DNA of 64,000 bases from a virus, in the IMG/VR virus record IMGVR_UViG_3300045988_131126; one strand, 5' to 3'. The position numbers and the translations under genes were made by a program. Shown in pieces: positions 29,116 to 64,000 of this stretch. Position 1 is the stretch's first letter; the number at the start of each line of letters is the position of its first letter. The notes under the pieces were generated by a model, which had not been told where the DNA came from, made no database searches, and saw only the letters and a program-made list of their open reading frames with translations.

Positions 29116-29138
29116 ATTCTACCCTCCCGATTTATCGT

Positions 29139-29170
29139 ATTTACAAATAATTAATATATTAATATGTAAA
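29139..29170. promoter_or_regulatory. divergent pair of ATTATTTGTAAAT (minus) and ATTAATATGTAAA (plus) motifs
   Basis: Lies between divergent genes 28678..29115 and 29188..30033. Confidence 0.4.
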
Positions 29171-29187
29171 GTGAGGTTATAAAATAT

Positions 29188-30033: not shown

Positions 30034-30105
30034 ATACTTAGTATCTATCTCAATTTATCATCTACAAATAATTAATATACAAAGTAAGTGAGGTTATAAA
30101 ATATT

Positions 30106-31044
30106 ATGGATTATATAATGGAAACAGAATTGCTTAATTATGAAACGCAAATAAATATGCTCAAAGAAGCAGCTTATAGTACTCGCATAGACGAATCTTT
30201 GATTACTGAGGAATTTTCTATCAAGAAAGCATGGGACTCTTTTGTAAAATGGCTTAAAGAAAAAGTAGGTCCGATAATTAAAAAATTATTCAATTGGGGT
30301 AAAGAAGTGGTATCTTCTGAAGAAAAGAAAGATGAAAAAGCAAAAGAAGATATAGATTTTATATTAAAATATCAAAACCAAATGAAAAATGCTTATGCCG
30401 GAAATGCCATAGAAAAGAAAAAAATATGTCTGTATGCGCTTGATGCGAACTCTGAAGAACCGGTAGTGGATATTGTAGTGAGAAATGATACTTCTCCAAT
30501 AGATGTCCACATATTCGGACTTAAACGAAGTTCTTTCATATTGAAAACAATACTTGGAATGAGTAATGAAAAATTTGAAGAAGAAAAAAAAGAGCATATG
30601 AAAAAACAAGAAGAAATAAATAAATTGAAAATAAACGATATTGAAAAATGTTTTTACAAAAAAGAAATTAGGGATGACTGGTTGATCAACGATGCCTACT
30701 ATATCACAAATTCTATGAAACGTATAGTCGAAGATAAAAATGGTATTAAAGACGCAGAGAAAAATCTCAGTGCAATAAATGATATATATTACTCCATGCA
30801 GAAAGAGGTAAATGATTTTGATAAAAAATATGGAGGCAGTCCAGATGAAGGGGTTAAAAATACTATAGCTTATGGAAATATGGTTGTTAAAGAAATTATC
30901 GATACGGGAACTGTTATTAGAACTTGTATCCAATTATACAAAAAAGATAAAGATCATCAATATATGTTTTTAAAACAAGTTAAAGCTTTAATGAAAGAAG
31001 CACTCGATAGAGGAGAATCTGTAGCTGTTCCTGATTTTGCATAA
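30106..31044 (+). CDS. MDYxxE-family paralog 3 (312 aa)
   Basis: MDYIMETELLNYETQINMLK...KKAWDSF...IKKLF. Confidence 0.75.
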   Translation: MDYIMETELLNYETQINMLKEAAYSTRIDESLITEEFSIKKAWDSFVKWLKEKVGPIIKKLFNWGKEVVSSEEKKDEKAKEDIDFILKYQNQMKNAYAGNAIEKKKICLYALDANSEEPVVDIVVRNDTSPIDVHIFGLKRSSFILKTILGMSNEKFEEEKKEHMKKQEEINKLKINDIEKCFYKKEIRDDWLINDAYYITNSMKRIVEDKNGIKDAEKNLSAINDIYYSMQKEVNDFDKKYGGSPDEGVKNTIAYGNMVVKEIIDTGTVIRTCIQLYKKDKDHQYMFLKQVKALMKEALDRGESVAVPDFA

Positions 31045-45397: not shown

Positions 45398-45470
45398 GTT
45401 TATCACCTCTTATTATTTTACCTAATTGTATACTATATTAATAATAAAAGAAAAGGAGGAAGTTGTAATT

Positions 45471-46394
45471 ATGAAAACAACTATCAAAAAACCAATTATT
45501 CCTGGAGTAGGAGAAAGAATGAATATACCACATATTCAAACCTGTAGTGCTGAATATAATAATATGATTCTTGAATCTCCTATTAAATCAATCGAAAGCA
45601 AATATTATTTCGATGTCAATCCTATGTATCTGGTAAATGCGTTCAATATGACAGGAGTTATGCTGGAAAGTTATTATGGTCCAAAAGATGAAAGTCCTTC
45701 ATATTTTATTTTATCTCCTGAAGATGCTATTAGATTAGGTAATTCTATTATAGATGCAGCTAATAAATGCGCAGAATATAATAAGATTCTCTATAATAGA
45801 GATAAGATGGTTAATATGCTTAAATCTAATATAGAGAAAGGCTATGTAGATACACTGGTTATTAAATATCATAAAAAATGTAGTATGGAGGTCAATAATC
45901 CTTATACGCATATTTACAATGTATATCCCATTTATAAAGAGAAAATTAAAAATAATCATTTTAATTTTAATATTCCATTGACTATTACAGATTTCACTAC
46001 TATAGATGGAACAGATATCAATCCAAATGATTTAATTCGTGGTATGAAGGATAGTATATATGCTATGTTTTGTAATCACACATATTATTCTTGTTTATCA
46101 GAAGAAGAGAATAAAAAGCTTGATGAAATGAGAAAGTTCAAAATCAAATTTGCAAATATGAGAAAGGTAATCGAAAGAGATTATAATACATCAGTAATTG
46201 ATAATAAACGAAATAAAGAAAAATATAAAGAGAATCAAAAATTACTTTTAAACAACGCTCAATATGCAGCTGAAAGAGATGCTAGATTAGCAGAATCTCT
46301 TAAAGATGTACCTAGAGATAAAAACGGTAGAATTAATTTTGCCGAAGCAGTAAAGGCTATGGGTATTAAATTAGACTTTAATGGGAAGAAATAA
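45471..46394 (+). CDS. hypothetical protein (307 aa)
   Basis: ATG 45471 (MKTTIKKP...) with SD AAAAGGAGG. The track start is TTG. Confidence 0.75.
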   Translation: MKTTIKKPIIPGVGERMNIPHIQTCSAEYNNMILESPIKSIESKYYFDVNPMYLVNAFNMTGVMLESYYGPKDESPSYFILSPEDAIRLGNSIIDAANKCAEYNKILYNRDKMVNMLKSNIEKGYVDTLVIKYHKKCSMEVNNPYTHIYNVYPIYKEKIKNNHFNFNIPLTITDFTTIDGTDINPNDLIRGMKDSIYAMFCNHTYYSCLSEEENKKLDEMRKFKIKFANMRKVIERDYNTSVIDNKRNKEKYKENQKLLLNNAQYAAERDARLAESLKDVPRDKNGRINFAEAVKAMGIKLDFNGKK

Positions 46395-46696: not shown

Positions 46697-46706
46697 TCAA
46701 AAATTT

Positions 46707-46746
46707 AGGGTAAATCTTATAAGATTTACCCTATTTTTATTTTTTC
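46707..46746 (+). terminator. rho-independent terminator
   Basis: AGGGTAAATC...GATTTACCCT stem, then ATTTTTATTTTTT. Confidence 0.8.
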
Positions 46747-46836
46747 TAAAAACTTTTTTCGTCCACAGCTATCCAAATTTGGTACAATAAAGCATTTTTG
46801 GAAATAGTTAGATAAACTAAACTTTTTTTCAATTAC

Positions 46837-46858
46837 AGATTATATTTGTAATATAATT
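46837..46858. repeat. left arm of a 22-bp perfect inverted repeat
   Basis: AGATTATATTTGTAATATAATT. Its partner is at 47109..47130. Confidence 0.85.
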
Positions 46859-46952
46859 CATATTACCATTAAAAAAAGTAAAATAAAGATTTAATAGAAA
46901 TCCTAAAAGTTTAAGTTAAATACTAAGATAGATAAATGAAAAATACTAACGG

Positions 46953-46962
46953 TTTATGTAAT
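46953..46962 (+). promoter_or_regulatory. TTTATGTAAT motif inside the 46.75-47.24 kb non-coding region
   Basis: Same 10-mer core as at 27150 and 57187. Located about 280 nt upstream of ATG 47243. Confidence 0.35.
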
Positions 46963-47020
46963 CTACATAGATAAATACTATATTGAAGTAAGTTCTTGTA
47001 GAATTACTGCCTCAGGCAGA

Positions 47021-47034
47021 TAGAAACTTGTAGA
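47021..47034 (+). promoter_or_regulatory. 14-nt element perfectly complementary to the SD-to-AUG spacer of gene 47243
   Basis: TAGAAACTTGTAGA (47021..47034) is the exact reverse complement of TCTACAAGTTTCTA (47229..47242), which directly abuts ATG 47243. Confidence 0.45.
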
Positions 47035-47108
47035 ATCTTATAGCCAGTTAAATAAGAATCGCTATTAACTTGCTTAGTAGAGAATGGTTTAAAGTGAAAT
47101 AAAAGTAA

Positions 47109-47130
47109 AATTATATTACAAATATAATCT
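47109..47130. repeat. right arm of a 22-bp perfect inverted repeat
   Basis: AATTATATTACAAATATAATCT is the exact reverse complement of 46837..46858. Confidence 0.85.
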
Positions 47131-47242
47131 CTGTCATCACTTTTTATACTTAAAAACCTAGATATAGTAATAATTTTAGAATATATCTATTACAAGAAGA
47201 TAATTATACTATTATTTTCTAGAGGAGGTCTACAAGTTTCTA

Positions 47243-48241
47243 ATGTTCAATTTAGTCAAAAAAATAAAAGAATTATACAGAAAAACAGAAGTAAGAAATA
47301 GAAAGAAAGATACAGATGAAGAAGTAGCTAAAGTTATTAAAATAGAAGATTATGGAGATTACAATATTCAAATTGTATATGTAAATGACTATATTAATAA
47401 ATCTTTTTCAGAAGAAGATCTAAATAAAATAGAACCTTATATAGTATTTTCTATTATTTTTGATATAGATAAAGAAGATATTACCAAGGACTTCTACAAC
47501 AACTTACTGCCATTTTTAGATACAATTCCATCGGCAAAATATACTAGTTCATATGATAGTGAGAATAGAAAATTATATTCTTATATAGGTCTATATGGAT
47601 TTAGTTTAGATTTTATATTCGATATGTATTATTCTAAAGGAAAGAATATATCATTTATATTATCTAATATGATTCAATTGATATACGAAGAATTAAATAA
47701 TACTAGGTTTAGTCAATTTATTCCTATGAAATTTATAAATCAATCAGATGAATTACCAGATTATAAAGGTACTTTTAGAACTACTTCTACAAGTACTTAC
47801 AATATACTTGGTATTGATAAAATTCCAAACGTAAATAATATATTTAGCACTAATCAATTAGTATATATGGCTAATATTTATATATGTATGGATTATACAA
47901 AAAATCAAGATATTGGATATCCAGAAGGGTTCGGTTATACATACAGTTTATTTAAATTCTTACGATCTATATATAAATCTGCAGATATATATACTAGAAA
48001 TAAAGATATTATATTTCAGATTGAAAATGATGCATATTTTACCATAAATGGTATAAATTTACGCAAGTATGCACAACAATGTAAATTTATAAAATATAAC
48101 ATCTATAGTGATGAGTCTGAATTATACAATGACGTGGATGAAGTATTAGAAGAAAATGAAACTATGGGTAAGGATTCAAATTCTACGCTTCAACCTATCG
48201 ATTTTGATAATGATGACTTTGATGATATAGATGAATATTAA
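47243..48241 (+). CDS. hypothetical protein (332 aa) with acidic C-terminal tail ending in an aromatic residue
   Basis: SD GAGGAGG 14 nt upstream. C-terminus ...PIDFDNDDFDDIDEY. Confidence 0.75.
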   Translation: MFNLVKKIKELYRKTEVRNRKKDTDEEVAKVIKIEDYGDYNIQIVYVNDYINKSFSEEDLNKIEPYIVFSIIFDIDKEDITKDFYNNLLPFLDTIPSAKYTSSYDSENRKLYSYIGLYGFSLDFIFDMYYSKGKNISFILSNMIQLIYEELNNTRFSQFIPMKFINQSDELPDYKGTFRTTSTSTYNILGIDKIPNVNNIFSTNQLVYMANIYICMDYTKNQDIGYPEGFGYTYSLFKFLRSIYKSADIYTRNKDIIFQIENDAYFTINGINLRKYAQQCKFIKYNIYSDESELYNDVDEVLEENETMGKDSNSTLQPIDFDNDDFDDIDEY

Positions 48242-48759: not shown

Positions 48760-48792
48760 ATACCCCTATAACCAATACGGTTATAGGGGTAT
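48760..48792. terminator. bidirectional terminator between 48277..48753 and the beta-like gene
   Basis: ATACCCCTATAACC / GGTTATAGGGGTAT stem, then TTATTTTTT. Confidence 0.75.
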
Positions 48793-48799
48793 TTATTTT

Positions 48800-51700
48800 T
48801 TATTCTATTTTATAAGGTATATCTAATATATCTTTACAAGATCTAGTAAGTTCTACTAATAACTTATTAAGACTACCTACTTTGATTACCGATGTAACCA
48901 TACGTGCATTGATGCCTCCTAATGATACTAATGAATCCATCTTTTCATTTTTTCTGAAATCTGAATATGGTTCATCTCCTTTAGGGAAGATATCTTTTAC
49001 TACACCTTTTACAGCAGAATAATATATAAGTTTATCACCTACAGACATCTTATCGTTATATTTAATATTTATTTCTATATATAATCCATCTACTTTCTTT
49101 AATTTACCTTGATTATCAAGTTTATCTGTAGATTCTACATCGGAAGTATCAATACCATACTTCTTCATAATAGATTTCTGTTTATTGATATTTCCTTCGT
49201 ATTTATTCCATAATTTTAATAATGTATCAGACAATTCAGATTTTTCACAAGTACGTTTTATTACAATAGATTGTATTGTACCGGTTACTTCTGCTTTGAT
49301 ATTAGTTCTACCTAATTCACTTATCATATCACTTTCATCATCTGATAAGTTTCTTAATATCTGGTCTACATATTCATCGTCAGAAGCCATCTGTAAAGTA
49401 AACAGAGTGTCGCCTTCTTTTACAGCTTGTCTTTCTTTTACCATATTATATATATTAGCATCTTTAGGAACTGATTTAGTTACCTGTAATATTACTTCTG
49501 ATGCCATATCTTCTGATAACTTTTGAGATATAATAGCACTATCTTCATATCCTTCATCTGTATTTAATAAAGCTACTTTACAGAAAGTACCTATATTATA
49601 TTCTATATTATCAGTAGTACCAGTTTTATTAGAATAAGCTAAAGGGTCATATGCTAAGATATCATTTTTACCAAACTTATCCCCAACTTTTAACTTACTA
49701 TCTAATTGAATACCAATATAGAAACCATTACTGGAGTTCTTTTCTGCTTTATCTTTAAAGGATATAAAATCATGAGTACCGTTATCGTATTCTACGACCA
49801 TATAATCATTAGTTTTTTCTATTACTTTGCCTTTATCTTTGGATTTAAAAGAGAAAGTATTAGAAGTCAAATATGGTAAAGCTTCATCTGCTCCTGTTGT
49901 TACTAATAATGGATCGCTCTTAGCACATCTCATACCATGTTTAGATGTCTGAATAAAGTTCATAGCACTACGCATAGGGTCATCACCTGTGGTACCAAAA
50001 GGAGTCAAAGCTTCTGTCATACATAAAGTTTTAATAGGATTTAATTCTTTTTCTTTGCCATCATCATTTGAAAGTATTCTACCGTATGCATCTACATTAG
50101 CATCTATAGTAGCCTGACGTACAATACCTACATTACCAGCAAAACCTGTTGACAAAGATAAAGTACCAAACATTGAATCATCATATGAACGTTTATCAAG
50201 ACCATAAGATCTATCACTATTCATACCAGAATGACCTTTAGGAGTTACAGCAGAATATGATTCATATTCTTGAAGAGGATTAATTACAGATAAATCACTA
50301 GAAGTATTTAACTTCATGAATTCATCTATAACTGCTGATTGTTTTAAACTAAATCCTTTATTTCTTCCATGTTTAATAGAAGTATTATATCCAGCATATT
50401 CTCTTGCTAATACTGCGTATAATAAGTCTACTATCTGTTGTTTACGTTTTAATTGCCTTGTATTAGCAATATTAGTATGCTTTACATATTTATTATCAGC
50501 TAATAATTGATTAGCGTATAATAATACTGATACATAGTCTGTTGGTAACTTATAAGATACTAATTGCTGATAGGTATTATTATCAATCATCAAATCATAA
50601 AAGTTATCAAGACCATCGGCTATAATTCTACCGCCAAATAGATCTAAGAAAGCTAAATAAGTAGTACGTTTATTCATATCAGAAATAGATACTTCTGATA
50701 TAGGGCAATCTCTCAATCCATTTAATAATAATGAAGAATCATATGTAACTTCGAAAGATAAATATCCATCTTTAAATCTAATACTATCCCAGTTATAAGG
50801 TAAATCTTTTGGTTTTTCTTCACTGAGATCATATTTAATATTTGCTTTCTTTAATACTACGTCTAATCCTTCGTGATAAGCACATAAAACTATTAAAGGT
50901 ATCTTTTGTGACATTATACTAGCTCTAGAATACGTATATTTGGTAGCTTTAGAAGCTTTAACAAAGTCAGAATAAAAAGTTGTACCTTCCATTTGGGTTG
51001 ATATTAATGAAGCTAAATAATCGCTGAAAATACCATTTTTAGAAGTATAATATTCTACTTTTTTATTTTTTGTATCATAAGCAAAAGGTACTCCTTTTGA
51101 ATCATCTACATTATATTTCTTTCTAATTTCATCTTGGTTAAAATAGAAAGTATAATTCTTAGTAACTATTTTACTATATACACTAGATAAATCTATATAG
51201 TCGACAGGTAATTCATATTTACTACAAACCCTAGCATTCATACCTGTATATACTTTTAAATTAGGATATTCTTTTTTATTTAAAACTTTCATGAGTTTAC
51301 CAGAAGATATAATACTCTTACCAGCAGCAGAGCCAAATCGTCTTATGAAAATCTTGTTATAATTAGATACAATCTGTACTGTATCTTCGTCAGTTTTGAT
51401 AATAGGCATCAAGAATAACTGGTTAGGCAATTCTTTTCTATTACCTCTTAATTTAATATATTTACCATCTATAAATTTAGGTATATCAAGTTTAACAGTA
51501 AATCTTTCTCCTCTTCCAGATTCGTATTTAACTTCATAAGTTTCTACAGCATCCTCAGAAGTAGAAGTATCTGTGACTGATATATCTCTAATATATAATG
51601 GATTAGATAATTTAGACAATGATTCAAAAGTACGTACAATATCATCATCCATATTATATGAATTATCTATATTAGGAAAAGTTAAATTCTCCCATTCAGG

Positions 51701-53674
51701 ATTAACACTATCTACTTTAAGATCAATAGGTTCTATTTTCTTATTCTGTTGCTCTATAGGTAAAGGTTTTCCTTCATCTAAGATATCTTTAATTGATTTA
51801 CCTTTAATCTCTTTAGATAATAAATCATTTTGCAATTTAAGATTTCTATTAGCCCTAGCAGCTGTAACTACTGGCTGTCCTTCATCTGGATTATCGTTTA
51901 AGAAATCCAGAATATCTTTAACCTCGTCATCATCTAACTTATCTAAAGCTATATCTGTATCGCTACTATTTTTAGCAGCCTTATCTATTTTATCTACTAA
52001 TTCTTTTTTCTTTTCTGCTTTCTGTACAGCAGCTTTACTTGTAGAAGCAGGTTTAATTTCTTCTTTGTCTAAAGAATCAATTTTAACACCCTGAGTTATT
52101 TCTACTTTATTTATAATATTATCTTTAATAACCTTTGGAGAATCTTGTACGTCTTCAGGTTCTTCTGGTATAATAGTATTTTCATCTATAAGCATTTTAA
52201 TTAATCTGATATAAGAAGCTTTTAATTTTTTATAGTCTACTTTAGCAAAATTAATTGTAAAGTATCCTTTATTAGATAAAAATACGAATGTATTATCACC
52301 ATATTTCTTCAAAGAATCTATATCAGACATTAATCTTTTATAGATTACAGATATAGGATTTATAGTATCTTGAATCATCCATAATCTTCCGCTACTAATA
52401 GCATTCCAATCGTCTAATGGTATAGTTATAGTTTTATTAGCATATCCTGCATCGTTTATTTCTTTATCCATAATTAATCTATCCATTAATCTGGAATAAA
52501 TATTATAGCCTCTAAGATTTTTAAATGTACTATTTTTAAGATAAGTTTCATTATACCAATAAGTATCAAAAAACAGATTCAAATTTTTATATTTAGAAAT
52601 ATCATGATAAGTATATTTGATAGTAGGATTATCGGTTTTTACTTTATCATATATAGCTTGCATATCTTTTCTTGTTTTAATACGATCTTTATAAAGCATT
52701 TTCTTTAGTATTGAATCTTGAGCATCTTCTAAAAGAACGTAATCATTTTCTGTTAAAGGTAAAAGATCGTATAATTTAGAATAGTAATTTTCTTCAATTG
52801 GTTTATCAAATACTGAATAATTAGTAACGTTTTCATATAAACGATCTATATTAAAATAATCTAATACGTTATTTATAGTATCATTTACTGGTAGATATAA
52901 AGAAAATAATTTTACTAATTCTTTGGTATTATTATTCTTTAGCACTACGTCTTTATAAAATACTCTTCTATTACGCTCCATGTATGATACTATACATGGA
53001 CACAATGTTTTTAAATTTTTAGCAAAAGGCCAAATCCCTTTTTTAGAATAATAATCATATAAACCGCTTTCTACTAAAGCAGTCCCATATAATAAAGACT
53101 TATTTATTGATGAATTAGCTCTATTGATCAAATAAACCATAAGAGTAAATTTGACATAAGTTTCATAATCTACAAATAAATCTCTATTAAAAGTATACCT
53201 AGATTCTAAATACAGTACCGTTGTAGTTGGTTCTCTTAAATATCCTCTTCTGTATACTTCTACGTTTATAGTTTCAGGGAATTCTATGCCGTTAGGTAGT
53301 CCTTTTTGGATACTCGATAAATAATCTCCTGTTATTACACTTTCTACTTCTTTTATATCTGATTCTAATCCGTTAAATACAAAATTAGTTTTTGGACTAT
53401 CGAATAATTTTTCATAATCCTCTAATATAGACACTGATTCTTCTACAGGTTCTTCTTTTGTCCCATCTATGTAATACATTACTGGTCTTCTCATAAAATA
53501 AGAATAATAATATCTATATCCAAGAAATTCGTTATTCATTATAGATTTAGAAGACTCGTAACTCGGGGCCAATAATATAGCTACAGAACCTTTCTTTCTA
53601 TCTTTGTCGCTGATAGGCATTAAAGCTTTTTTACGTTTGATCATTAAATTAGGAATTTCGTCTATGAAATACAT
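48800..53674 (-). CDS. phage multisubunit RNA polymerase beta-like subunit (1624 aa) with large non-homologous N-terminal extension
   Basis: IPKFIDGKYIKLRGNRKELPNQLF (aa 731-754) resembles IPLMTxxGTFIINGxERVIVSQL. NPLQEYESYSAVTPKGHSGMN...GNVGIV resembles NPLSE..RRxSALGPGGL...PNIGLI. DDPMRSAMNFIQTSKH resembles DDANRALMGANMQRQA. EGYEDSAIISQK resembles GYNFEDSILxSE. GDKLIYYSAVKGVV...SLGGINARM resembles GDKxAGRHGNKGVxS...NPLGVPSRMN. Confidence 0.85.
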   Translation of the reverse strand: MYFIDEIPNLMIKRKKALMPISDKDRKKGSVAILLAPSYESSKSIMNNEFLGYRYYYSYFMRRPVMYYIDGTKEEPVEESVSILEDYEKLFDSPKTNFVFNGLESDIKEVESVITGDYLSSIQKGLPNGIEFPETINVEVYRRGYLREPTTTVLYLESRYTFNRDLFVDYETYVKFTLMVYLINRANSSINKSLLYGTALVESGLYDYYSKKGIWPFAKNLKTLCPCIVSYMERNRRVFYKDVVLKNNNTKELVKLFSLYLPVNDTINNVLDYFNIDRLYENVTNYSVFDKPIEENYYSKLYDLLPLTENDYVLLEDAQDSILKKMLYKDRIKTRKDMQAIYDKVKTDNPTIKYTYHDISKYKNLNLFFDTYWYNETYLKNSTFKNLRGYNIYSRLMDRLIMDKEINDAGYANKTITIPLDDWNAISSGRLWMIQDTINPISVIYKRLMSDIDSLKKYGDNTFVFLSNKGYFTINFAKVDYKKLKASYIRLIKMLIDENTIIPEEPEDVQDSPKVIKDNIINKVEITQGVKIDSLDKEEIKPASTSKAAVQKAEKKKELVDKIDKAAKNSSDTDIALDKLDDDEVKDILDFLNDNPDEGQPVVTAARANRNLKLQNDLLSKEIKGKSIKDILDEGKPLPIEQQNKKIEPIDLKVDSVNPEWENLTFPNIDNSYNMDDDIVRTFESLSKLSNPLYIRDISVTDTSTSEDAVETYEVKYESGRGERFTVKLDIPKFIDGKYIKLRGNRKELPNQLFLMPIIKTDEDTVQIVSNYNKIFIRRFGSAAGKSIISSGKLMKVLNKKEYPNLKVYTGMNARVCSKYELPVDYIDLSSVYSKIVTKNYTFYFNQDEIRKKYNVDDSKGVPFAYDTKNKKVEYYTSKNGIFSDYLASLISTQMEGTTFYSDFVKASKATKYTYSRASIMSQKIPLIVLCAYHEGLDVVLKKANIKYDLSEEKPKDLPYNWDSIRFKDGYLSFEVTYDSSLLLNGLRDCPISEVSISDMNKRTTYLAFLDLFGGRIIADGLDNFYDLMIDNNTYQQLVSYKLPTDYVSVLLYANQLLADNKYVKHTNIANTRQLKRKQQIVDLLYAVLAREYAGYNTSIKHGRNKGFSLKQSAVIDEFMKLNTSSDLSVINPLQEYESYSAVTPKGHSGMNSDRSYGLDKRSYDDSMFGTLSLSTGFAGNVGIVRQATIDANVDAYGRILSNDDGKEKELNPIKTLCMTEALTPFGTTGDDPMRSAMNFIQTSKHGMRCAKSDPLLVTTGADEALPYLTSNTFSFKSKDKGKVIEKTNDYMVVEYDNGTHDFISFKDKAEKNSSNGFYIGIQLDSKLKVGDKFGKNDILAYDPLAYSNKTGTTDNIEYNIGTFCKVALLNTDEGYEDSAIISQKLSEDMASEVILQVTKSVPKDANIYNMVKERQAVKEGDTLFTLQMASDDEYVDQILRNLSDDESDMISELGRTNIKAEVTGTIQSIVIKRTCEKSELSDTLLKLWNKYEGNINKQKSIMKKYGIDTSDVESTDKLDNQGKLKKVDGLYIEINIKYNDKMSVGDKLIYYSAVKGVVKDIFPKGDEPYSDFRKNEKMDSLVSLGGINARMVTSVIKVGSLNKLLVELTRSCKDILDIPYKIE

Positions 53675-55374: not shown

Positions 55375-55402
55375 GTAGAATGAAGAAAGGTAACTATAAG
55401 TT

Positions 55403-55543
55403 ATGAGTAAGAAACAGCATATAAGCAGAGAAGATTTCTTATATATAATGAAATCTATGGATGCTAAGCAAATGCAAAAGTATATAGAATCAAAAGGAAA
55501 AGATCCCAAGTTATTTAATCCAATAATGCATTGCGTTAAATAA
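55403..55543 (+). CDS. possible small protein (46 aa, MSKKQHISREDFLYIMKSMDAK...)
   Basis: Own reading. ATG 55403 with weak SD AGAAAGG. Fills a gap otherwise covered only by an antisense shadow ORF. Confidence 0.35.
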   Translation: MSKKQHISREDFLYIMKSMDAKQMQKYIESKGKDPKLFNPIMHCVK

Positions 55544-55624
55544 CACAAATATGATAAATTAGGAATAGTAAACTATTACATACCTAACTATTAGGAAATA
55601 GAAAAATATTAGGAGGACTTAATT

Positions 55625-57130: not shown

Positions 57131-57135
57131 AATTG

Positions 57136-57167
57136 TACCCGTAATACCTTAATTGGTATTACGGGTA
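57136..57167 (+). terminator. rho-independent terminator
   Basis: TACCCGTAATACC / GGTATTACGGGTA stem, then TCTTTTG. Confidence 0.7.
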
Positions 57168-57184
57168 TCTTTTGCCTCCTAAAA

Positions 57185-57200
57185 CATTTATGTAAATATT
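57185..57200 (+). promoter_or_regulatory. CATTTATGTAAATATT motif upstream of the tape-measure-like gene
   Basis: Located 4 nt before SD TAGGAGG, just after the terminator at 57136..57167. Confidence 0.4.
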
Positions 57201-57219
57201 GAATAGGAGGTACTTAATT

Positions 57220-60200
57220 ATGCCTAATCCTGTCAAATGGATAACAAATGTTGGTAAATCTATATCATATTCATTTATAGACGAAATGAAAGAATTAAAC
57301 CCAGCTTTGGCTTCCTTTAAAGAAGATAACGGAGATTTTGCAAAATCTGTAAAAAGTACGATATCTATAAAAAGCATAAAAGATGCTTCAAAGAATTTAT
57401 CTAGTAATGAATATTTTAGTATAGCGAAAGATACTATAAATAATCTAAAAAGTGATATTAAAACAGGTAATCTGTATAATAGAGAAAGAGAGAAGAAGGC
57501 TGAAGATCAATTCGCTTCTAAAATGATGGGATTTGATGATTCAGATTTCGGATTTGATGATAGCGGAGACATGAATTTTAATTTTGATGAAGATGTAACT
57601 GATTCTATAGATCAATCTACTAAATCAACTAATGATATGGTAGATTTAGTAGGTAAGAAAACATCTTTAGCTATATCTAATGCTGTTGTTGGATCTTCCG
57701 AATATATGGCTAAATCATCAAGAAAAAATACAAAAATATTGTTCGATCAGAACAATATTTTATTTAGCAAGTTACATTCTGATTTAGGTACAGTTAATCA
57801 GAATATAGGATCTATATTAGAGTTTAATAAAGAAGCTACTACGACTCATTATAATAACTCTGCTGCATATTATTCGAATATGACTTCTAAAATGGAAGAA
57901 ACCACTTCCATGCTGAAAGAAATGCTTGAAATGCAAAAAGAGTATTATGGAAAGAAGAACGATTTTAATGGAATTTATGGATCAAATGAAAGAAGTTATT
58001 CTGGAATATCGAATAAAGGAGTAATAAATTTAGAAGCATTTTTTAAGAATATAAAAGGTAATGTAAAAGATAAGTTATCTATGCTTGATATGCTTGGAAG
58101 TATGGTTACTGATACAGGAATGGGAGGTATGTTATCTGCATCCCCTGGTAAGTATTTAACGCAAGGACTAGTTAAAATGCTTACACCTAAAATGCTCAAA
58201 GAATCTATGAAAGATTTTAACGAGACATTATCTGGTGTATTAGCAAATGCTATATTAAAAATAAATGATGAAGCCGGAGATTTTAGCTTTAAGCAGATAT
58301 TGGCTAGTTTGTTTAAAACAAATGAATCTCTTAAAACAGAGATAAATCCATCAGGATATAAGAAAGATGCTATACCTTTCGATGGAGTAACAAAGAAAGC
58401 TATTACAGAGGTTATACCTACATATTTGGCAAAAATATTATCTGCTGTGTCTAATCAATCAGAAACTAGATACGACTACGAAAAAGGTAGATTTGTATCT
58501 ATGGATGAAATAAAGAGAGAGTATCAAAATATAGTAAAAAATAATTCTAAAATGGCATCATGGAATATGAGTAATTCTATGATGGATTTAGCTAATAATA
58601 CTATTAAATTTGATAAAGATGATAAAGGCAATTTTATTTCTAAGAAGCAATTCCAAAAAGATTTGGAAGCTTTCTTCGAATATCAATATAAAAATGCTAA
58701 AGTATTTAATGGTAGAAAAGAAAATATAGATCCTGCTACATACGGAATGAAAGGTGGACAGAAATCCGAAATTAGTGCTAAACTAATTAAACAGATGTGG
58801 AATGCTCTGCCTAATAAAGAACGTATGAAATTAGCTGGGGAAATATTAGATCAGAGACAAATGCAAAATACTACCATGAGAGACATAGAAAGTAATTCGA
58901 ATAGTAGTATAATTAATTTGTTTAATGGCTCTGGAGCTACTAAAACTGGTAGTGCTTTTAAATCTAAAAAAACATCATCTGATAGTCCTTATGCCAACTC
59001 TAGTAAATATTCTGGAGCTATCATCGATATACTTGGTGATATACGTAAAGAAGTATCTTATATTAGAGCTTATGGTATTGGCGAAAAGAATGGATTTGGT
59101 GGTAAGTCTAAAGGAAAACACAGTAAGAAGAAATCTAGAACTACGAATAATTATAATAGAACTGTAAGTTTCGAAAATTATAATCCTTATGATGATATTA
59201 ATATAAATGATTTTGATGAAGATGAAAATTATAGTTCTATGGATTTATCATTTATGAATGAGAATCTTGTAGGACCAGATGGTAAAGTGTTACCTCCTCT
59301 TGAAAAGAAAGATAATGAAACACAAGAAGAATTTGATCAAAGAGTCAGAGAACGATTCGAACAGATCAAATCTGGTAAAAAGAAAAACAAAGGTATATTC
59401 GGGAAGATAGCAGATGCTACTTCTGGAAATAAACTTGTAAAATCTATTGCCGGTGGTATAGACAAAATATTAGAAAAACCAGCACAATTTCTCACTACAG
59501 TAATACGTAAAGCAGATGAAACCGTATTTGATTTAGTATTTGGTAAAGCTGGTGATAAAGAGAACAAAGGTATCCTATATGAAATGAAAGTTGGTATTAG
59601 AAAAACTTTCACTAATATGGGAGACTGGTTACAGAAAAATGTATTAGATCCTATAAAAGAAAAATTTACAGCAAAAAATATTAAAGAGATGGGTCGCAAA
59701 TTTTTTGGTCTCTTTGGTATTGATATAGATAAGACTGTAAAAAGTGTAAGAGAAAAATTATTTGGTGTAAAAGGAGAAGACGGTAAGCGCCAAGACGGGA
59801 AAAAGGGCATCTTTGGACAGTTTATAGACGATACTAAAGACTCTTTTAAGAAAGCCTTTGGGTGGTTTAAAGGAACTTTTAAAGAAGCAGCTGAATGGGC
59901 AGGATTTAAAGGTACTTTAAACGAAAAAGGTAAAACCAAACAGAAGAAAAAAGATATAGCTCAAGACGTGATGCGTCGAGCTATGAATAACGAAGATAAA
60001 AGAGCTGCTCAGAGAGTACATGAAAAAAATAAAGAGAAAAAAGAAGAAGACAAAAGAAGAAGAACCGGAGAAGAAATATTAGGCCAAGCTGCAGCTGGAT
60101 TAAGGCGAGTACCTAAAACAGGTGTATATGCTTTATCAGAGGGCGAAGCCGTTATTCCTCCAGATCATGATCCTGCTAAAATAAAAAGAAGATATGCTAA

Positions 60201-63200
60201 TGAAGCTAGAGCTATAGATAGATATAAAAAGCATGGCGGAATTAGTATGTTTGCTGAAGGAACAGAAGGACCTTCAGAAGACGATAAGGATACTAATAAA
60301 AAAGACAAAAAATCTAATTATGATCGTGCAAAAGAAATATACGATAGTATTAAATTTGAATACGATGACTACGAAGAAGGACAAGCTCCATTAGGAATGG
60401 AGATAATGAAACAACTATCCAATCTTCTTAAACTTGGTAAAGCTTTTGCTGGAGATGTATCTGACAAAGTTATGTCTCAAAAAGATGCAGACAATAAAGT
60501 CAAAGAAGATGTAAGCAATATATTCTGTAAAGTAATGAATCTTGCTCCAGAAGTAAAGAACGCTTTACCTAATATGACTGTTGGTGCCGTAATAGGTTCT
60601 GGCGTATCATTAATTAGTGGTATGATAGGAGGTCCTTTATTAGGGGCTGCTGTTGGTGCCGCTAGTGGATTAGTAATAAAAAGTAAAACTGTACAGGATT
60701 TATTGTTCGGAAGTACAGATAAAGATGGAAATTATAAAGCTGGATTGATTCCTAAAAATGTATCTGATACTATAAAGAAATATGTACCGACTATGGCTAA
60801 AGGATCTACTTTAGGTATGATCACTTCTCTCATACCATTTGTTCCTGGTGGTCCTATGGCTGGTATCTTATTAGGATCAGCTGCAGGCGTTGTAGCAAAA
60901 AATGAGAAAATATATAATGCATTATTTGGTGAAGATTCTATATTACCTGATTTTCCTAATAGGATTAAGAAAGCGTTGCCAAAAATGGGAGCAGGAGCCG
61001 CTGTAGGCTTAGTTGCCGGACCATTTGGTGTTGCTACAAATATCTTATTAGGATCAGCGGTAGGATTTGCCGCAGATAGTGATAAATTCAAAAATGTATT
61101 CTTTGGAGAAAAAGATAAGTATGGTAAAAGAGTTGGTGGTATTTATAATACAATAGTAGATACTATATCAGCTCCTATAAAAGATATGACTCAGAAATTC
61201 GGAGATTGGTTCAATGAAACAATCAAACGAAATCTGAACGATTTCTTTACGCCTTTAAAGAATTCTGCATTACATGCTGTGGATACAATAAAAGATTTCT
61301 TTAAAGATAAAATTAATGATAAAATAGTAAGACCTATAGAAGAAAGATTAAAATCATTATTAAAACCATTTGCTAAATTATTTGGATTTGCTTTTAATAC
61401 TGGGAAAAATATATTAAAAACTGGTATAGGATTACCGTTTAATATGCTTGGTGGTATTGGACGTCGTATGACAAGACATCAAGTCAAAAATGGTAGAGCC
61501 TATGATATGACAGCAGCTGAAAGGAATGAATATAGACGTACTCATAAGCTTGGTATTATAGGAAGGGATAAAGCATCTCGAATGGACCAAACTCTGGAAC
61601 AGATGGGATCAGAGGACCTTCAATCAGCTAAAGATGCTATAGAGTTCCTTAGAACTGGCGATAGAGATAATAAGAAAGTAATAAATGAAAATACAAAAAA
61701 GATACAGAATAGTATTAATGCTAATATAGGTAAATTACCTGCTAAACAGCAAAAAGATATTATTAAGTATCTTAATAAAGGTAAATATAAACAAGCTATA
61801 GGATACTTAGATAAAATAAATATATCTGATCCTAGCGCTAAATCTGCTTTGATTAAAGATATAGAAGCCTCTGGTAAAGAAATAGCAAAAGCCAGATATG
61901 CTATGAATTACAATAAAAATGGTGAATATAGAACTAAAGCAGAAGATAAATTAAAATCTTTAGGGTTTGATACTAATTCATTAAATCTTAGAGATATGAG
62001 TAGATTACTTGACACTGAGTTAGCAGATAGAAATAATTCTGATGCTTATGAAGAATCTAAGAAATCTGAGAATTTTCAGAATGATATATTGAAAGATATT
62101 CAAGAGATTATTCTTCAGATGAAGATGCTTAATAAGGGATTACTTGGATCTGATATTGATGTAGAAAGTATCACCACTAAAAATTTAGATAAAAAGATAA
62201 AGAAAGCTCAAGATAAAGCTGAAAAGAGAAACGAACAGCAAGAGCATATAGATAGAGGAGAAGCTCGCACTAAATTTGGTAGAGCTAGGCAAAAAATCTT
62301 TGGTGGTATAAAAGGAGCTGTTGGTCATACATTTAATAGATTAGGTGGATGGGTATTTGCTGACAATACTACTGAAGATGGAAATGTTGTAGATAGAGCT
62401 GCTTATAAAGGAGTAAAAGCTGCTGAAACTCTCGGCAGAGGTGTAATTAATTCTCCTAGAAGAGCTAAAAGAGCTGTTGCTAAATGGGCAGGAAGAAAAT
62501 TAAATAAATTTAAAGGTAGAAATGATCGACTTAGAAGATTTATGGATGAATACTTCGACGATCATGATGTAGATGGACAAGCTGCTGAGGGATTATATGG
62601 AGTTCCATATAGCGGATTATATGCTTTATCTGAGGGTGAATATGTAATACCTAGTTTAGCAGAAGGAACCGAACTACCTACCAATAGAAAAAATAATACC
62701 ATAGTCTTACGAATAATGATGGTTGGTGACAAATTACGAGCATCATTAGGAATGGGCAAAGGGAAAAAAATTAGAAGAAATAAAAATAAGGACGAAAATA
62801 GTTATCAGGGAGATAATAATGAAAAGACTACAACAAGTTTTTATAATGGTCTTCCTATTAAAAATAAAGTAGATGCTAATGGTAATGTAGAGCCTGATAC
62901 GTCTGATGCTGAAACAGTAAATACTCTTAGAGAAAGAGATGAAGATAGAGCCAATCAAAAAGGTATATTTGATACCATTAAAGGTATTCCTTCTAAGATT
63001 GGTGAAATTTTTGGTATCGGTAAAAAGAAAGATAAAAAGAAAGATAATCTTTTAGGAAAGATATTAAAAGCTGCTGGAATTGCAATGCTTGCAGCATTCT
63101 TTGCACCTAAGATTATAAACTTTATTAAGAAAACTGTAGCTCCATTTATAGAAGATACAGTTGTTCCTGTATTTAAAGAAAAGATTCTTCCTGCAATAGA

Positions 63201-64000
63201 AGAAAAACTTAATGATGTTAAAAATGGATTCATGAAAGGATTCTTAGGAGATAGCTATACTGGAGATGAGCCAGAAGGAGTTGTTGGAGCCTTTGGAGAA
63301 AAGATCGGTGAAGGAGTAGCTGCAACTAAGAGTTATATGGAAGAAACAGTATTACCTTGGATTACTAATACAGCTATACCTGCTATTGGTAATATGCTTG
63401 GAGAAGTTCTTCCTCAAATATTAGCTAATGCAATTCAGAATTTACCTAAAACATTAGGTTTCTTAGGCAAAACTGGATTAAAAACTATGGATATCTTATT
63501 AGGTAATGGTAATAATGCTGGCGGAACTACTACAATAAATCCAAATCAATTACAATCTGGTGAAACTGGAATGTATGATGAGAATGGAAATGTTTTAACA
63601 GCAGAAGATATTCAGAATGGTAATTATAAAAAGATATACAATTCTCAAGGTGTAGAAGGAACCGTAGAAGATGGACAGATCAAATTCAAAGATCAATCCA
63701 TGGTTGGTGGAACTACATTTAAGAAAATTGGAAATGGTATGGGTCATGCTTTTGCCCATGGTAAGCAAGGTGTGATGAATAAACTTTTAGGCAAAAGCTC
63801 TAATGTTTTAAAACATCTTGGAATAGGTGGTAAAGCTGCATCTGTTGCAACAAAAGTAATATCAAAACCTATAGAATTAGCTGGTAAAGCTGGTGCTAAA
63901 GTATCTAAAGGATTTGACAAATTTGTATCTAAAGCTACATCATCTGCTGCTGGTGAGGCTGTAGAACATGTAACTGGAGATGTCGTAGAGAATACAACTG
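57220..64000 (+). CDS. giant tape-measure-like / virion-associated protein (over 2260 codons, 3' end beyond window)
   Basis: I read every codon from ATG 57220 (SD TAGGAGG) to 63999 and found no stop. Three Gly-zipper hydrophobic segments at about 60586..61080. Two copies of G(V/L)YALSEGExVIP. KGIFG repeats. Lys-rich, helical-looking sequence. Confidence 0.55.
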   Translation, partial: MPNPVKWITNVGKSISYSFIDEMKELNPALASFKEDNGDFAKSVKSTISIKSIKDASKNLSSNEYFSIAKDTINNLKSDIKTGNLYNREREKKAEDQFASKMMGFDDSDFGFDDSGDMNFNFDEDVTDSIDQSTKSTNDMVDLVGKKTSLAISNAVVGSSEYMAKSSRKNTKILFDQNNILFSKLHSDLGTVNQNIGSILEFNKEATTTHYNNSAAYYSNMTSKMEETTSMLKEMLEMQKEYYGKKNDFNGIYGSNERSYSGISNKGVINLEAFFKNIKGNVKDKLSMLDMLGSMVTDTGMGGMLSASPGKYLTQGLVKMLTPKMLKESMKDFNETLSGVLANAILKINDEAGDFSFKQILASLFKTNESLKTEINPSGYKKDAIPFDGVTKKAITEVIPTYLAKILSAVSNQSETRYDYEKGRFVSMDEIKREYQNIVKNNSKMASWNMSNSMMDLANNTIKFDKDDKGNFISKKQFQKDLEAFFEYQYKNAKVFNGRKENIDPATYGMKGGQKSEISAKLIKQMWNALPNKERMKLAGEILDQRQMQNTTMRDIESNSNSSIINLFNGSGATKTGSAFKSKKTSSDSPYANSSKYSGAIIDILGDIRKEVSYIRAYGIGEKNGFGGKSKGKHSKKKSRTTNNYNRTVSFENYNPYDDININDFDEDENYSSMDLSFMNENLVGPDGKVLPPLEKKDNETQEEFDQRVRERFEQIKSGKKKNKGIFGKIADATSGNKLVKSIAGGIDKILEKPAQFLTTVIRKADETVFDLVFGKAGDKENKGILYEMKVGIRKTFTNMGDWLQKNVLDPIKEKFTAKNIKEMGRKFFGLFGIDIDKTVKSVREKLFGVKGEDGKRQDGKKGIFGQFIDDTKDSFKKAFGWFKGTFKEAAEWAGFKGTLNEKGKTKQKKKDIAQDVMRRAMNNEDKRAAQRVHEKNKEKKEEDKRRRTGEEILGQAAAGLRRVPKTGVYALSEGEAVIPPDHDPAKIKRRYANEARAIDRYKKHGGISMFAEGTEGPSEDDKDTNKKDKKSNYDRAKEIYDSIKFEYDDYEEGQAPLGMEIMKQLSNLLKLGKAFAGDVSDKVMSQKDADNKVKEDVSNIFCKVMNLAPEVKNALPNMTVGAVIGSGVSLISGMIGGPLLGAAVGAASGLVIKSKTVQDLLFGSTDKDGNYKAGLIPKNVSDTIKKYVPTMAKGSTLGMITSLIPFVPGGPMAGILLGSAAGVVAKNEKIYNALFGEDSILPDFPNRIKKALPKMGAGAAVGLVAGPFGVATNILLGSAVGFAADSDKFKNVFFGEKDKYGKRVGGIYNTIVDTISAPIKDMTQKFGDWFNETIKRNLNDFFTPLKNSALHAVDTIKDFFKDKINDKIVRPIEERLKSLLKPFAKLFGFAFNTGKNILKTGIGLPFNMLGGIGRRMTRHQVKNGRAYDMTAAERNEYRRTHKLGIIGRDKASRMDQTLEQMGSEDLQSAKDAIEFLRTGDRDNKKVINENTKKIQNSINANIGKLPAKQQKDIIKYLNKGKYKQAIGYLDKINISDPSAKSALIKDIEASGKEIAKARYAMNYNKNGEYRTKAEDKLKSLGFDTNSLNLRDMSRLLDTELADRNNSDAYEESKKSENFQNDILKDIQEIILQMKMLNKGLLGSDIDVESITTKNLDKKIKKAQDKAEKRNEQQEHIDRGEARTKFGRARQKIFGGIKGAVGHTFNRLGGWVFADNTTEDGNVVDRAAYKGVKAAETLGRGVINSPRRAKRAVAKWAGRKLNKFKGRNDRLRRFMDEYFDDHDVDGQAAEGLYGVPYSGLYALSEGEYVIPSLAEGTELPTNRKNNTIVLRIMMVGDKLRASLGMGKGKKIRRNKNKDENSYQGDNNEKTTTSFYNGLPIKNKVDANGNVEPDTSDAETVNTLRERDEDRANQKGIFDTIKGIPSKIGEIFGIGKKKDKKKDNLLGKILKAAGIAMLAAFFAPKIINFIKKTVAPFIEDTVVPVFKEKILPAIEEKLNDVKNGFMKGFLGDSYTGDEPEGVVGAFGEKIGEGVAATKSYMEETVLPWITNTAIPAIGNMLGEVLPQILANAIQNLPKTLGFLGKTGLKTMDILLGNGNNAGGTTTINPNQLQSGETGMYDENGNVLTAEDIQNGNYKKIYNSQGVEGTVEDGQIKFKDQSMVGGTTFKKIGNGMGHAFAHGKQGVMNKLLGKSSNVLKHLGIGGKAASVATKVISKPIELAGKAGAKVSKGFDKFVSKATSSAAGEAVEHVTGDVVENTT

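Follow-up and report, generated by a model that had tools for sequence, protein, structure and literature searches.

An inverted-repeat-bracketed non-coding module in an AT-rich jumbo phage as a candidate cis-acting DNA element

The largest non-coding region of the window, the stretch of 64,000 nucleotides analysed here, contains a module bracketed by two inverted 22-nt arms (46819–47149). The module is tentatively regarded as the functional unit of the region, a DNA-level, single-copy, cis-acting element of the origin or control type. Judged by comparison among lineages, the conserved unit is not the pairing between a leader and the start site of the following gene. The sequence-only reading of the region as a real multi-part non-coding element, with the 22-bp inverted repeat as its most striking part, is upheld, and every motif listed in it is present where it had been placed.

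Results

Phage, neighbourhood and adjacent genes

The source of the window is an AT-rich jumbo phage whose multisubunit RNA polymerase and whose early and late promoters are all of AR9 type. Its relatives, uncultured jumbo phages of the gut, form a clade with 189–265-kb contigs; the genome is at least 265 kb in size. Nucleotide-metabolism and RNase H genes occur in the neighbourhood. The upstream operon is short, of early type, and consists of two genes on the + strand closed by a terminator; the module is situated between this terminator and the early promoter that serves the following gene. The 57–64 kb part of the window, seemingly empty, is a single giant ORF running past the window end. 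No tRNA or tmRNA genes are found.

The gene that follows (start at 47243) encodes a 332-aa protein. The INPHARED phage collection contains nothing that matches the locus or the protein in DNA or protein searches. Neither Pfam nor PHROGs yields a match for the protein, and its AF2 model (pLDDT 58) has no significant match in PDB or BFVD (Foldseek). A profile search of 1.84 billion representatives recovers seven family members, none annotated. The 99-aa neighbour is, like the 332-aa protein, without recognisable fold or family. An SSB-like product, analogous to that of T4 gene 32 and ending in an acidic tail, had been suggested; no Pfam, PHROG or structural SSB match supports it, and three of five aligned relatives (P0004, P0005, P0006) lack the tail.

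Architecture of the non-coding region

The region (46697–47242, 546 bp) is the biggest inter-ORF gap of the window, as had been claimed. The longest ORF inside it has at most 28 codons, and none is conserved (small-ORF scan). Its parts are listed in Table 1.

Table 1. Features of the non-coding region, from left to right
Feature	Position	Strand	Characteristics
Bidirectional intrinsic terminator hairpin	46706..46733	both	12-bp stem with 4 G-C pairs, followed by a T-run
Relic second terminator hairpin (GCTAT..GGTACAATAAAGC)	46768..46795	+	3' half alone left
Left outer flank AAAC-TTTTTTT-CAATTAC	46819..46836	+	Conserved; adjoins the left arm
Left arm AGATTATATTTGTAATATAATT	46837..46858	+	Inner 7 nt conserved in lineages A–E
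Interior	46859..47108		250 bp, lineage-specific; left half AT-rich, right half GC-richer with a short hairpin
A-tract block CATTAAAAAAAGT	46867..46879	+	Conserved; 8–10 nt inside the left arm
TTTATGTAAT	46953..46962	+	Resembles the 3' half of a late promoter; ACGG or ATGG replaces AACA
CTTGTAGAAT x2 (46995, 47027) around the hairpin CTGCC-TCA-GGCAG (47007–47019)	46995..47036	+	Lineage A only
Upstream 14-mer TAGAAACTTGTAGA	47021..47034	+	Exact reverse complement of 47229–47242 in this strain
Right arm	47109..47130	-	Exact reverse complement of the left arm
Right outer flank ATCACTTTTTATAC	47136..47149	+	Conserved; 5–10 nt outside the right arm
Proximal early-type promoter region of gene 47243	47172..47222	+	AATTTTAGAATATAT block and degenerate core ACTATTAT-TTTCTA-G ending at the SD
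SD GAGGAGG, 14-nt spacer TCTACAAGTTTCTA and ATG of the 332-aa gene	47222..47245	+

The arms are 100% complementary and 250 nt apart, in agreement with the first description. The 22-mer is present in just two copies in 64 kb, even at three mismatches (0.07 expected), and the arms are the sole long-range perfect inverted repeat of the window. An inverted repeat of at least 22 nt is produced in 0 of 100 first-order Markov simulations of the region; the repeat exceeds chance. Each arm is quasi-palindromic in this strain (8-bp stem, 3-nt loop), as had been noted, but the internal palindrome is lost in other lineages.

The internal repeats reported earlier, AAATACTA (46918, 46941, 46973) and ATAGATAAAT (46928, 46967), are present but remain within chance expectation: 8-mers at three or more copies occur in 17% and 10-mers at two or more copies in 9% of the Markov simulations. 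The words proposed as operator candidates, TCTACAAG/CTTGTAGA, are confined to lineage A. In reverse complement, the right end of the interior reads TTTACTTTTATTTCACTTTAAACC.

Terminator hairpins equivalent to the first one precede the element in relatives L005, L007 and L148. The second terminator is intact in L007 (252–285), with a 16-bp palindrome and a T-run, and its other half is kept in L005. The upstream terminator insulates the module from read-through.

The sequence TTTCAATT(AC/GT) stands directly before AGATT in all lineages A–G, with hypervariable DNA further left. The A-rich stretch of the interior, where stability is lowest, opens with a block A(T/C)A(A/C)AAAAAA(C/G)T, found 28–33 nt from where the arm begins (lineages A, B, C, D, F and G). 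The right outer flank is (T/G)TC(C/A)ACTTTTTATA in lineages A, C, D and E, CACTATTTATC in B and CATCTTTTTATAC in G. Positions 46837–46936 are among the least stable 0.1–0.3% of 100-bp windows, and five of the twelve least stable 150-bp windows fall in 46.5–47.7 kb. Poor stability is to be expected wherever intergenic DNA is AT-rich.

Conservation of the arms among lineages

Seven lineages possess the same gap before the same gene, with 40–99% identity of the adjacent protein, and in each of them the gap has the same genes on either side. Two inverted arms are present in all seven, 206–420 bp from outer end to outer end; no conserved helical phasing is found in these distances. The perfect inverted repeat is 11–23 bp long over the seven lineages, and 20–23 bp in five. 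The outer 8–9 bp of the arms, (A/G)GATTATA, are invariant in all lineages, and the arm outer boundary is sharp. Variation in the central 7–8 nt is mirrored between the arms: lineages C, D and E have T-to-A and an additional T, and lineage G has TTTGTAA-to-TTACAAA, with reversed central polarity in both arms. In lineage F, 2 of 7 positions of the central spacer are unlike between the two arms. Complementarity of the inner arm half is lost in lineages F and G, where the inner element is not conserved; the outer sequence is fixed.

In the arm alignment 90.6% of cells pair and eight pairs are changed on both sides, a result reached by 0 of 500 shuffles; slid controls give 36–47%. No G-T/G-U intermediates are present at positions 2–19, and the few UG cells are all at positions 20–23. 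The lack of G-U in the conserved core favours DNA-level identity over an RNA helix.

Among 11 lineage-A sequences no arm position is variable, whereas the flanks vary at 21 of 145 (left) and 29 of 112 (right) positions; 47102–47107 and 47133–47135, next to the invariant right arm, vary in the same set. The arm 20-mer is present at one locus only in a contig of 147,886 bp, and no iteron-like copies of the arm core are found beyond the two arms in any gap. The outer flanks are conserved but asymmetric.

Interiors are unalignable between most lineages and share few similarities, mostly in forward orientation. TACTATA occurs in interiors 6 times versus 0.5 expected, which is not significant after correction for the number of words. 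Compared with L004, the interior of the window is 97% identical and the neighbouring genes 81–92%; compared with L150, the whole neighbourhood is 95–100% identical. A higher conservation of the interior than of the genes therefore holds against L004 but fails against L150, and mosaic recombination weakens any argument from interior conservation. Four short contigs begin 5–22 nt outside the left arm, which may reflect polymorphism among strains where the conserved block ends, or a structural cause.

Promoters

AR9 promoters are of two classes, early AAATATATATTAT-N6-G and late AACA-N6-TA/G (PMC5312081). Early promoters of the window, TATATTAT-N6-G, are located 26–58 nt before gene starts. Late AACA-N6-TAA occurs nine times in the window, eight of these intergenic and correctly oriented, and 0 times in this gap; AACA-N6-TA is absent from the gaps of six lineages. 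Without AACA, TTTATGTAAT probably has no late-promoter function. Gene 47243 has its own early-type promoter 3' of the right arm in relatives: near the SD the early core, exact or nearly so, is TATATTAT-TTTTTA in L005 and L007, and TATTTTAT in L009 and L012.

Discussion

Preferred interpretation

In the preferred interpretation, two inverted recognition sequences of ~22 bp would bracket a fast-evolving AT-rich spacer of 160–390 bp. A sequence-specific protein of the phage or of the host would bind both arms, and a nucleoprotein complex would assemble across the easily melted spacer, which opens with a phased A-tract. The role may be that of an origin-of-replication-type or an early-region control element. 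The identity of the arms would be kept through concerted evolution, by gene conversion or templated repair between them. Paired sites flanking low-stability DNA, a feature of origins that is permissive and not specific, are present. The GC skew in the window follows the coding strand and thus gives no independent origin signal.

Origins with inverted sites are the archaeal ORB-DUE-ORB arrangement beside orc1/cdc6, E. coli oriC (R1/R4) and HSV oriS (Box I/II). Like these, the module has an inverted pair of sites, a meltable AT-rich spacer with an A-tract and a single copy, and is located in a large intergenic region beside a conserved gene. It differs in that ORB or DnaA boxes vary between copies whereas the arms are identical and co-vary, in the putative nature of the initiator, and in a spacer that is longer and more variable than typical unwinding elements. 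Paired protein sites usually tolerate differences between copies. Perfect identity over 20–23 bp in five lineages is better explained by a need for identity or complementarity itself, as in a crossover region or in nucleic-acid pairing.

Alternative explanations

A crossover region is the basis of an alternative in which the arms are recombinase targets in inverted orientation and the interior is flipped, changing the expression of gene 47243. Each site would consist of an outer binding element AGATTATA, an asymmetric 7–8-nt crossover spacer and an inner element TATAATT; the recombinase, of tyrosine or serine type, would be encoded elsewhere in the genome of at least 265 kb or by the host. Known invertons include E. 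coli fimS, the cwpV and flgB switches of C. difficile flipped by RecV, and the invertible promoters of Bacteroides; their recombinase may be encoded far from the switch. The geometry is the same here: inverted repeats of 20–23 bp flank an intergenic segment of 160–390 bp with a gene just downstream. The differences among lineages A–E and G are all limited to the central 7–8 nt and are the same in both arms, as recombination would require because crossover regions must match. The repeat has a sharp outer boundary and an interior free to diverge, and the mismatched spacers of lineage F are consistent with a decayed switch. Against inversion, the interior has an identical orientation in 11 of 11 lineage-A sequences and is collinear within lineages B, C and D, and the clear similarities between lineages in a comparison of interiors in both orientations (C-D, C-E, B-C, G-C, G-F) are all forward. 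The single reverse-complement match of G to B (z 3.5) is rejected, being a low-complexity stretch of 52 nt in conflict with the forward G-C and B-C matches. The forward orientation is the one found in every assembled contig, where assemblies show the majority state only. End-specific blocks keep their sides, the A-tract on the left and AATGGTTT on the right. In further difference from known invertons, no integrase or resolvase Pfam domain is detected in the ~70 proteins of the 64-kb window, nor any recombinase in L150, L152 and L187 among genes called up to 10 kb away; the interiors carry no exact early or late promoter consensus, and their hairpins are without clear T-runs. Lineages F and G do not conserve the inner binding element. 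For viruses, invertons are to date proposals from metagenomes only (PMC13501310). That the early region of such a lytic-type jumbo phage, with multisubunit RNA polymerases of its own, holds a switch varying in phase by inversion is unlikely, and flipping of this interior by a recombinase is given the same low credence. Other mobile or integrated elements are rejected. A MITE or IS element is rejected because of the single copy, at one locus in 64 kb and in the 148-kb contig, and because every lineage has it at the same position, with flanks that are conserved and not duplicated. For a host or attB-like site, scanning 185,579 genomes gives 33 single arm matches in unrelated taxa, by a rough estimate of the order expected by chance in AT-rich genomes. 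The TATGTAA of the arm resembles a XerD half-site; an XerCD/dif-like site is nevertheless rejected, the arms being of 22–23 bp and not 28 bp and the outer half showing no similarity.

In the earlier proposal of a leader that occludes the start site, the 14-mer at 47021–47034 pairs with 47229–47242, possibly with autoregulation by an SSB-like product. The 14-mer is indeed perfectly complementary to the SD-ATG spacer in this strain. A 14-nt inverted repeat occurs in 2% of the Markov simulations of the region, and 0 of 200 shuffles match the 14 perfect bp between the initiation region and upstream DNA; the complementarity exceeds chance. In a hypothetical transcript of 46960–47262 the pairing is part of the minimum-energy and centroid folds (z = -4.9), and by this model occlusion appears physically plausible in this strain. 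In this strain an upstream segment can pair perfectly with the 14 nt from SD to ATG, a point in common with autoregulation of the T4 gene 32 type and with cis anti-SD leaders in general. The sequence-only reading had named conservation or covariation of the two 14-mers as its own test, and neither is observed. The pairing is present in 8 of 12 lineage-A sequences, but L001, L002, L003 and L133, with proteins 98–99% identical, have a 3-nt deletion in the SD-ATG spacer (11 nt left, TCTAGTTTCTA), which leaves a duplex of 8 bp and a fold with z = -1.0. L150 and L151 have an uncompensated G-to-A at 47030, which also mutates the second copy of CTTGTAGAAT. In lineages B, C, D and F the complementarity between initiation region and upstream DNA is not above shuffles. 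No canonical early or late promoter that could make a long leader is present in the gap upstream of 47021, and with the early promoter at the SD, as in relatives, the 14-mer would be outside the mRNA. The case thus differs from T4 gene 32 in the loss of the pairing even among nearly identical strains, in a product not recognisable as SSB, with no SSB signature and a lineage-specific acidic tail, and in the lack of an evident long-leader promoter. Such a leader is considered extremely doubtful. The pairing is, on comparison of these strains, a lineage-A peculiarity, strain-specific and dispensable; it could lower the translation of any long-leader transcript in this strain. An RNA panhandle, in which a transcript over both arms is closed by a terminal helix of 11–23 bp, would act as an RNase III-type processing or stability element around an RNA of ~250 nt, or as a long 5' leader of gene 47243. 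It agrees with the fact that complementarity itself, beyond sequence, is kept via changes on both sides, that the arm helix closes the whole element in four of four lineages tested (RNAfold), and that the A-rich + strand is like sense strands in this phage. Long-range complementarity of 11–23 bp around a few hundred nt with two-sided changes is also found in rRNA-type RNase III stems. However, the upstream terminator is strong, and no early or late consensus promoter is present between it and the left arm; unlike in rRNA, the enclosed sequence has neither an upstream promoter nor conserved structure. RNAalifold gives 0 pairs in the consensus of the interior right end, right arm and outer flank, z of the interior fold is -0.5 to -2.2 in three of four lineages and near zero in A and C, and Rfam searches of the window and four relatives, at gathering and permissive (E up to 5) thresholds, give no match in the element. 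An invariant outer part of 9 bp and a core without G-U pairs are unusual for an RNA helix at such divergence and differ from RNase III stems, and lineages F and G lose inner-half complementarity while the outer sequence stays fixed. The panhandle is rated improbable. The arms have also been read as convergent promoters (TTTGTAAT core) yielding an antisense RNA pair; a special divergent pair (TATATTAC, one mismatch from the early core), yielding the mRNA of gene 47243 and a short leftward RNA, is another form of this reading. On the + strand the right arm contains TATATTAC-AAATAT-A, one substitution from TATATTAT-N6-R, and is the best early-like match before the gene in this strain besides TATACTAT (47205–47219, one substitution). 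From the right arm a sigma-70-like ATGACA-16-TATAAT points leftward; as a sigma-70 promoter it matches at 11 of 12 positions on the minus strand, but is rejected by a -35 spacing of 16 nt here versus 20–21 nt in lineages C, D and E. The convergent form is not supported, the arms fitting neither the early nor the late class used by the window. The arms and TTTATGTAAT resemble fragments of both AR9/PBS1-type classes, but the arms carry TATATTAC or TATATTTG, and the orientation of the core is not conserved. In the window, TATATTAC and TTTGTAAT show no enrichment and no association with genes (TTTGTAAT 13 versus 9.6 expected), a 1-nt insertion breaks the TATATTAC core in lineages C, D and E, and the direction of any 'promoter' flips relative to the gene in lineage G, as the arm polarity is reversed. 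A single locus is odd for a promoter class. For the AR9-type virion RNA polymerase, single mismatches are reported not to be tolerated (PMC5312081), which counts against arm promoters. Promoter activity of the arms, as a convergent or divergent pair, is very unlikely.

Significance

The visually attractive 14-nt anti-start pairing is, as a negative result, not a conserved regulatory device. For jumbo phages with their own multisubunit RNA polymerases, cis-acting DNA elements beyond two promoter classes are, to our knowledge, almost unknown, and we know of no origin, packaging site or switch defined in the AR9/PBS1-like branch. Nor do we know of an inverton established for lytic-type jumbo phages. 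The module is conserved far beyond the surrounding non-coding DNA, with arms evolving in concert, and is therefore a testable candidate for such a site. An inversion switch, if it proved true, would mean phase variation inside a virulent-type phage, and the first inverton to control early gene expression in such a phage. A true origin would provide a handle for replicon engineering.

Gap preceding gene 47243

The gap upstream of gene 47243 (plus strand, 332-aa product) is the largest between ORFs in the window, as the sequence-only reading had it for this non-coding stretch; it is 546 bp long and contains no ORF of more than 28 codons. Two 22-nt arms, AGATTATATTTGTAATATAATT and its exact reverse complement, lie 250 nt apart. 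Even when three mismatches are allowed, the 64 kb contain the 22-mer only twice (0.07 copies expected), and the window has no other perfect inverted repeat at long range. TTTATGTAAT is present once, and CTTGTAGAAT twice, 32 nt apart, on either side of the hairpin CTGCC-TCA-GGCAG. The claimed internal repeats AAATACTA (three copies) and ATAGATAAAT (two copies) exist as well. Short internal repeats of this kind are at chance level, since 8-mers with at least three copies appear in 17% of simulations and 10-mers with at least two in 9%. The 14-mer TAGAAACTTGTAGA can pair without mismatch with the 14 nt that separate GAGGAGG from ATG 47243. Markov simulations of the region produce a 14-nt inverted repeat in 2% of cases; in a targeted test the complementarity was reached by none of 200 shuffles. 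The original observation is confirmed.

Positions of features (window coordinates unless a contig is named)
Feature	Position	Strand	Remark
Gap before gene 47243	46697-47242		
Left arm	46837-46858		
Right arm	47109-47130		
14-mer	47021-47034		
Strong bidirectional terminator	46706-46733		ends upstream operon
Terminator	48760-48792		ends two-gene unit beginning at 47243
Second terminator hairpin, 3' half	46768-46795		lineage A
Second terminator hairpin, 5' half	L005 ~440-500		lineage B
Second terminator hairpin, intact	L007 252-285		lineage C
Arms of lineage G	L187 5508-5538, 5897-5927		
AACA-N6-TAA, intergenic, correctly oriented	3987, 57183	+	late-type
AACA-N6-TAA, intergenic, correctly oriented	13944, 17036, 18976, 23277, 44533, 53697	-	late-type
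RNA polymerase beta-like gene	48800-53674	-	
Near-duplicate intergenic regions	29116-29187, 30034-30105		72 nt each
Genes following the near-duplicates	29188-30033, 30106-31044	+	adjacent
Divergent promoter region	45400-45499		70 bp
Second-largest apparent gap	55375-55624		250 bp
Promoter and terminator 5' of giant frame	57131-57195		
Giant open frame	57196-64000	+	to window end

Lineages and conservation of the arms

Only metagenomes yielded homologues of the 332-aa gene product and the 99-aa protein encoded upstream. Their contigs were fetched and form seven lineages: A (window and 11 others, 90-99% identity), B (L005 and L006, 48%), C (L007 and L008, 45%), D (L009 to L011, 44%), E (L012, partial), F (L148, 40%) and G (L187). 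The gap is approximately 550-640 bp in all seven, and both arms are present in each. Perfect inverted repeats extend to at most 22 bp in A, 20 in B, 23 in C and D, 11 in F and 15 in G; outer-to-outer spacing is 206 to 420 bp. The arm 20-mer is confined to one locus in a 147,886-bp contig, and no degenerate extra arm copies occur in the gap of any lineage.

(A/G)GATTATA at the outer arm ends is invariant in all lineages. Changes in the arms are mirrored: position 10 is T-to-A, with an extra T, in both arms of C, D and E, and the central TTTGTAA is reverse-complemented to TTACAAA in both arms of G. The arms of G remain complementary to each other; relative to A, their centre resembles an inversion of the loop of each arm's local hairpin. 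In the formal count 90.6% of cells are paired and 8 pairs are altered on both sides, a result reached by none of 500 shuffles (slid registers, 36-47%), and the conserved core holds no G-T/G-U intermediates. Within lineage A no arm position varies across 11 sequences; positions adjoining the right arm vary on its inner (47102-47107) and outer side (47133-47135), as do 15-26% of flank positions.

Interior and flanks

Interiors are not alignable between most lineages. The spacer is fast-evolving, AT-rich, A-tract-led and variable in length, and is among the least stable DNA of the window (lowest 0.1-0.3%). Conservation outside the arms is asymmetric: TTTCAATT(AC/GT) adjoins the left arm, a CACTTTTTATA-like sequence lies 5-10 nt outside the right arm, and an A6-7(C/G)T block stands 28-33 nt from the left-arm start. 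Lineage C retains the whole of an ancestral second terminator hairpin, which persists only as opposite halves in A and B; at first sight this mimics an inverted 13-nt match between lineages. Four independent short contigs (L006, L009, L010, L011) start 5-22 nt outside the left arm, far above random-end frequency; polymorphism among strains where the conserved block ends, the T7 homopolymer, or some physical or structural property could be responsible.

Pairing upstream of the start codon

In a hypothetical RNA (46960-47262) the 14-mer pairing appears in both the minimum-energy and centroid folds (z = -4.9), and is thermodynamically convincing as a prediction for the window strain. As a conserved mechanism occluding the start site, the proposed headline interpretation, it is not supported by the sequences compared. 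L001, L002, L003 and L133, whose protein is 98-99% identical, carry GAGGAGGTCTAGTTTCTAATG, a 3-nt deletion leaving 8 bp (z = -1.0); L150 and L151 have 47030 G-to-A with the partner segment unchanged; lineages B, C, D and F show no such complementarity above shuffles. No canonical promoter for a long leader was found: TTTATGTAAT matches true late promoters in its 3' nine bases, with ACGG or ATGG replacing AACA. Relatives have the exact early core TATATTAT-TTTTTA just 5' of the SD, so the interior would be left out of their mRNA. The pairing is real but, not being maintained in relatives, is confined to some members of lineage A and dispensable. In the window strain it may still damp translation of read-through or long-leader RNA.

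The SSB-style acidic tail proposed for the 332-aa protein is missing in three of its five aligned relatives, P0004, P0005 and P0006. Neither a family nor a fold match turned up for the protein, and a profile search of 1.84 billion representatives returned only seven relatives.

Phage context and transcription signals

Window GC is 27%. The locus matches no deposited phage. The 1624-aa RNA polymerase beta-like protein is ~32% identical to Staphylococcus S6-like, Listeria LPJP1 and Bacillus AR9/PBS1 jumbo-phage homologues; the match starts only at about residue 515-650, and PHROG, Pfam and tblastn give no match for the N-terminal ~500 residues. The window also encodes RNase H, DHFR, thymidylate synthase and a protein with an Rpb1 domain. 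Related contigs reach 189, 214 and 265 kb, which indicates an uncultured gut jumbo phage as the source.

With the AR9 promoter consensus (PMC5312081), the early motif TATATTAT-N6-G is found 26-58 nt 5' of at least 8 gene starts. Genes show strong avoidance of the late motif AACA-N6-TAA (9 window copies, 26.5 ± 5.3 expected); 8 of these copies lie between genes, in the correct orientation. AR9's two-promoter system is thus shared by this distant relative.

A frame of more than 2268 codons is open to the window end, which explains the absence of listed ORFs in this stretch; directly 5' of it are a terminator and a late-type AACA-N6-TAA promoter. The near-duplicate intergenic regions (…ACAAATAATTAATATA…GTGAGGTTATAAAATAT) suggest a tandem gene duplication at 29-31 kb that took upstream signals along. 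The divergent promoter region, between a minus-strand gene ending at 45406 and a plus-strand operon, shows 100% identity with L004 and L150 (flanking genes 81-96%); TTG 45426, annotated as the start, is probably incorrect, the ATG at 45471 having a GGAGG Shine-Dalgarno. The second-largest gap is not truly non-coding, since a small ORF inside it corresponds to a 46-aa gene called in both L150 and L152.

Nature of the element

The promoter role suggested for the arms fails for either class: TATATTAC and TTTGTAAT show no enrichment, the early-like core is disrupted in C, D and E, and arm-centre polarity is flipped in G. A MITE was rejected (single copy, constant position, no target duplication), as was a known RNA (no Rfam match).

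Invariant outer arm ends, two-sided complementarity free of G-T/G-U intermediates in the core and a fast-evolving, unstable AT-rich spacer point, tentatively, to a single-copy cis element (46819-47149) acting at the DNA level. The arms would be two inverted recognition sites for one putative protein around an easily opened spacer, their identity kept through concerted evolution, in a presumed origin-type or early-region control role. An RNA panhandle would agree with the arm covariation and is improbable: a promoter is missing, outer arm sequence is invariant, and structure is lacking, with no RNAalifold consensus pairs over the interior's right end, the right arm and the outer flank and weak interior fold z-scores in 3 of 4 lineages.

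An inversion switch with the arms as recombination targets is unlikely, if less so. An outer element that never varies, a central 7-8 nt matched to the partner arm and a conserved inner element make up the pattern seen in recombination targets. The module, however, has the same orientation in every contig, and all clear interior similarities (C-D, C-E, B-C, G-C, G-F) are likewise in one orientation; the sole reverse-complement match (G vs B) is low-complexity, 52 nt long and in conflict with them. Neither the 64 kb nor the genes called within 10 kb on three large contigs include a recombinase. As judged from these sequences, the element is not visibly invertible; viral invertons are so far proposals only (PMC13501310).

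Origin or control regions, and invertons, are the nearest known likenesses of the module. It fits no tested family and is new in detail; as a conserved, apparently concertedly evolving inverted-repeat module, it is an object of interest in these phages.
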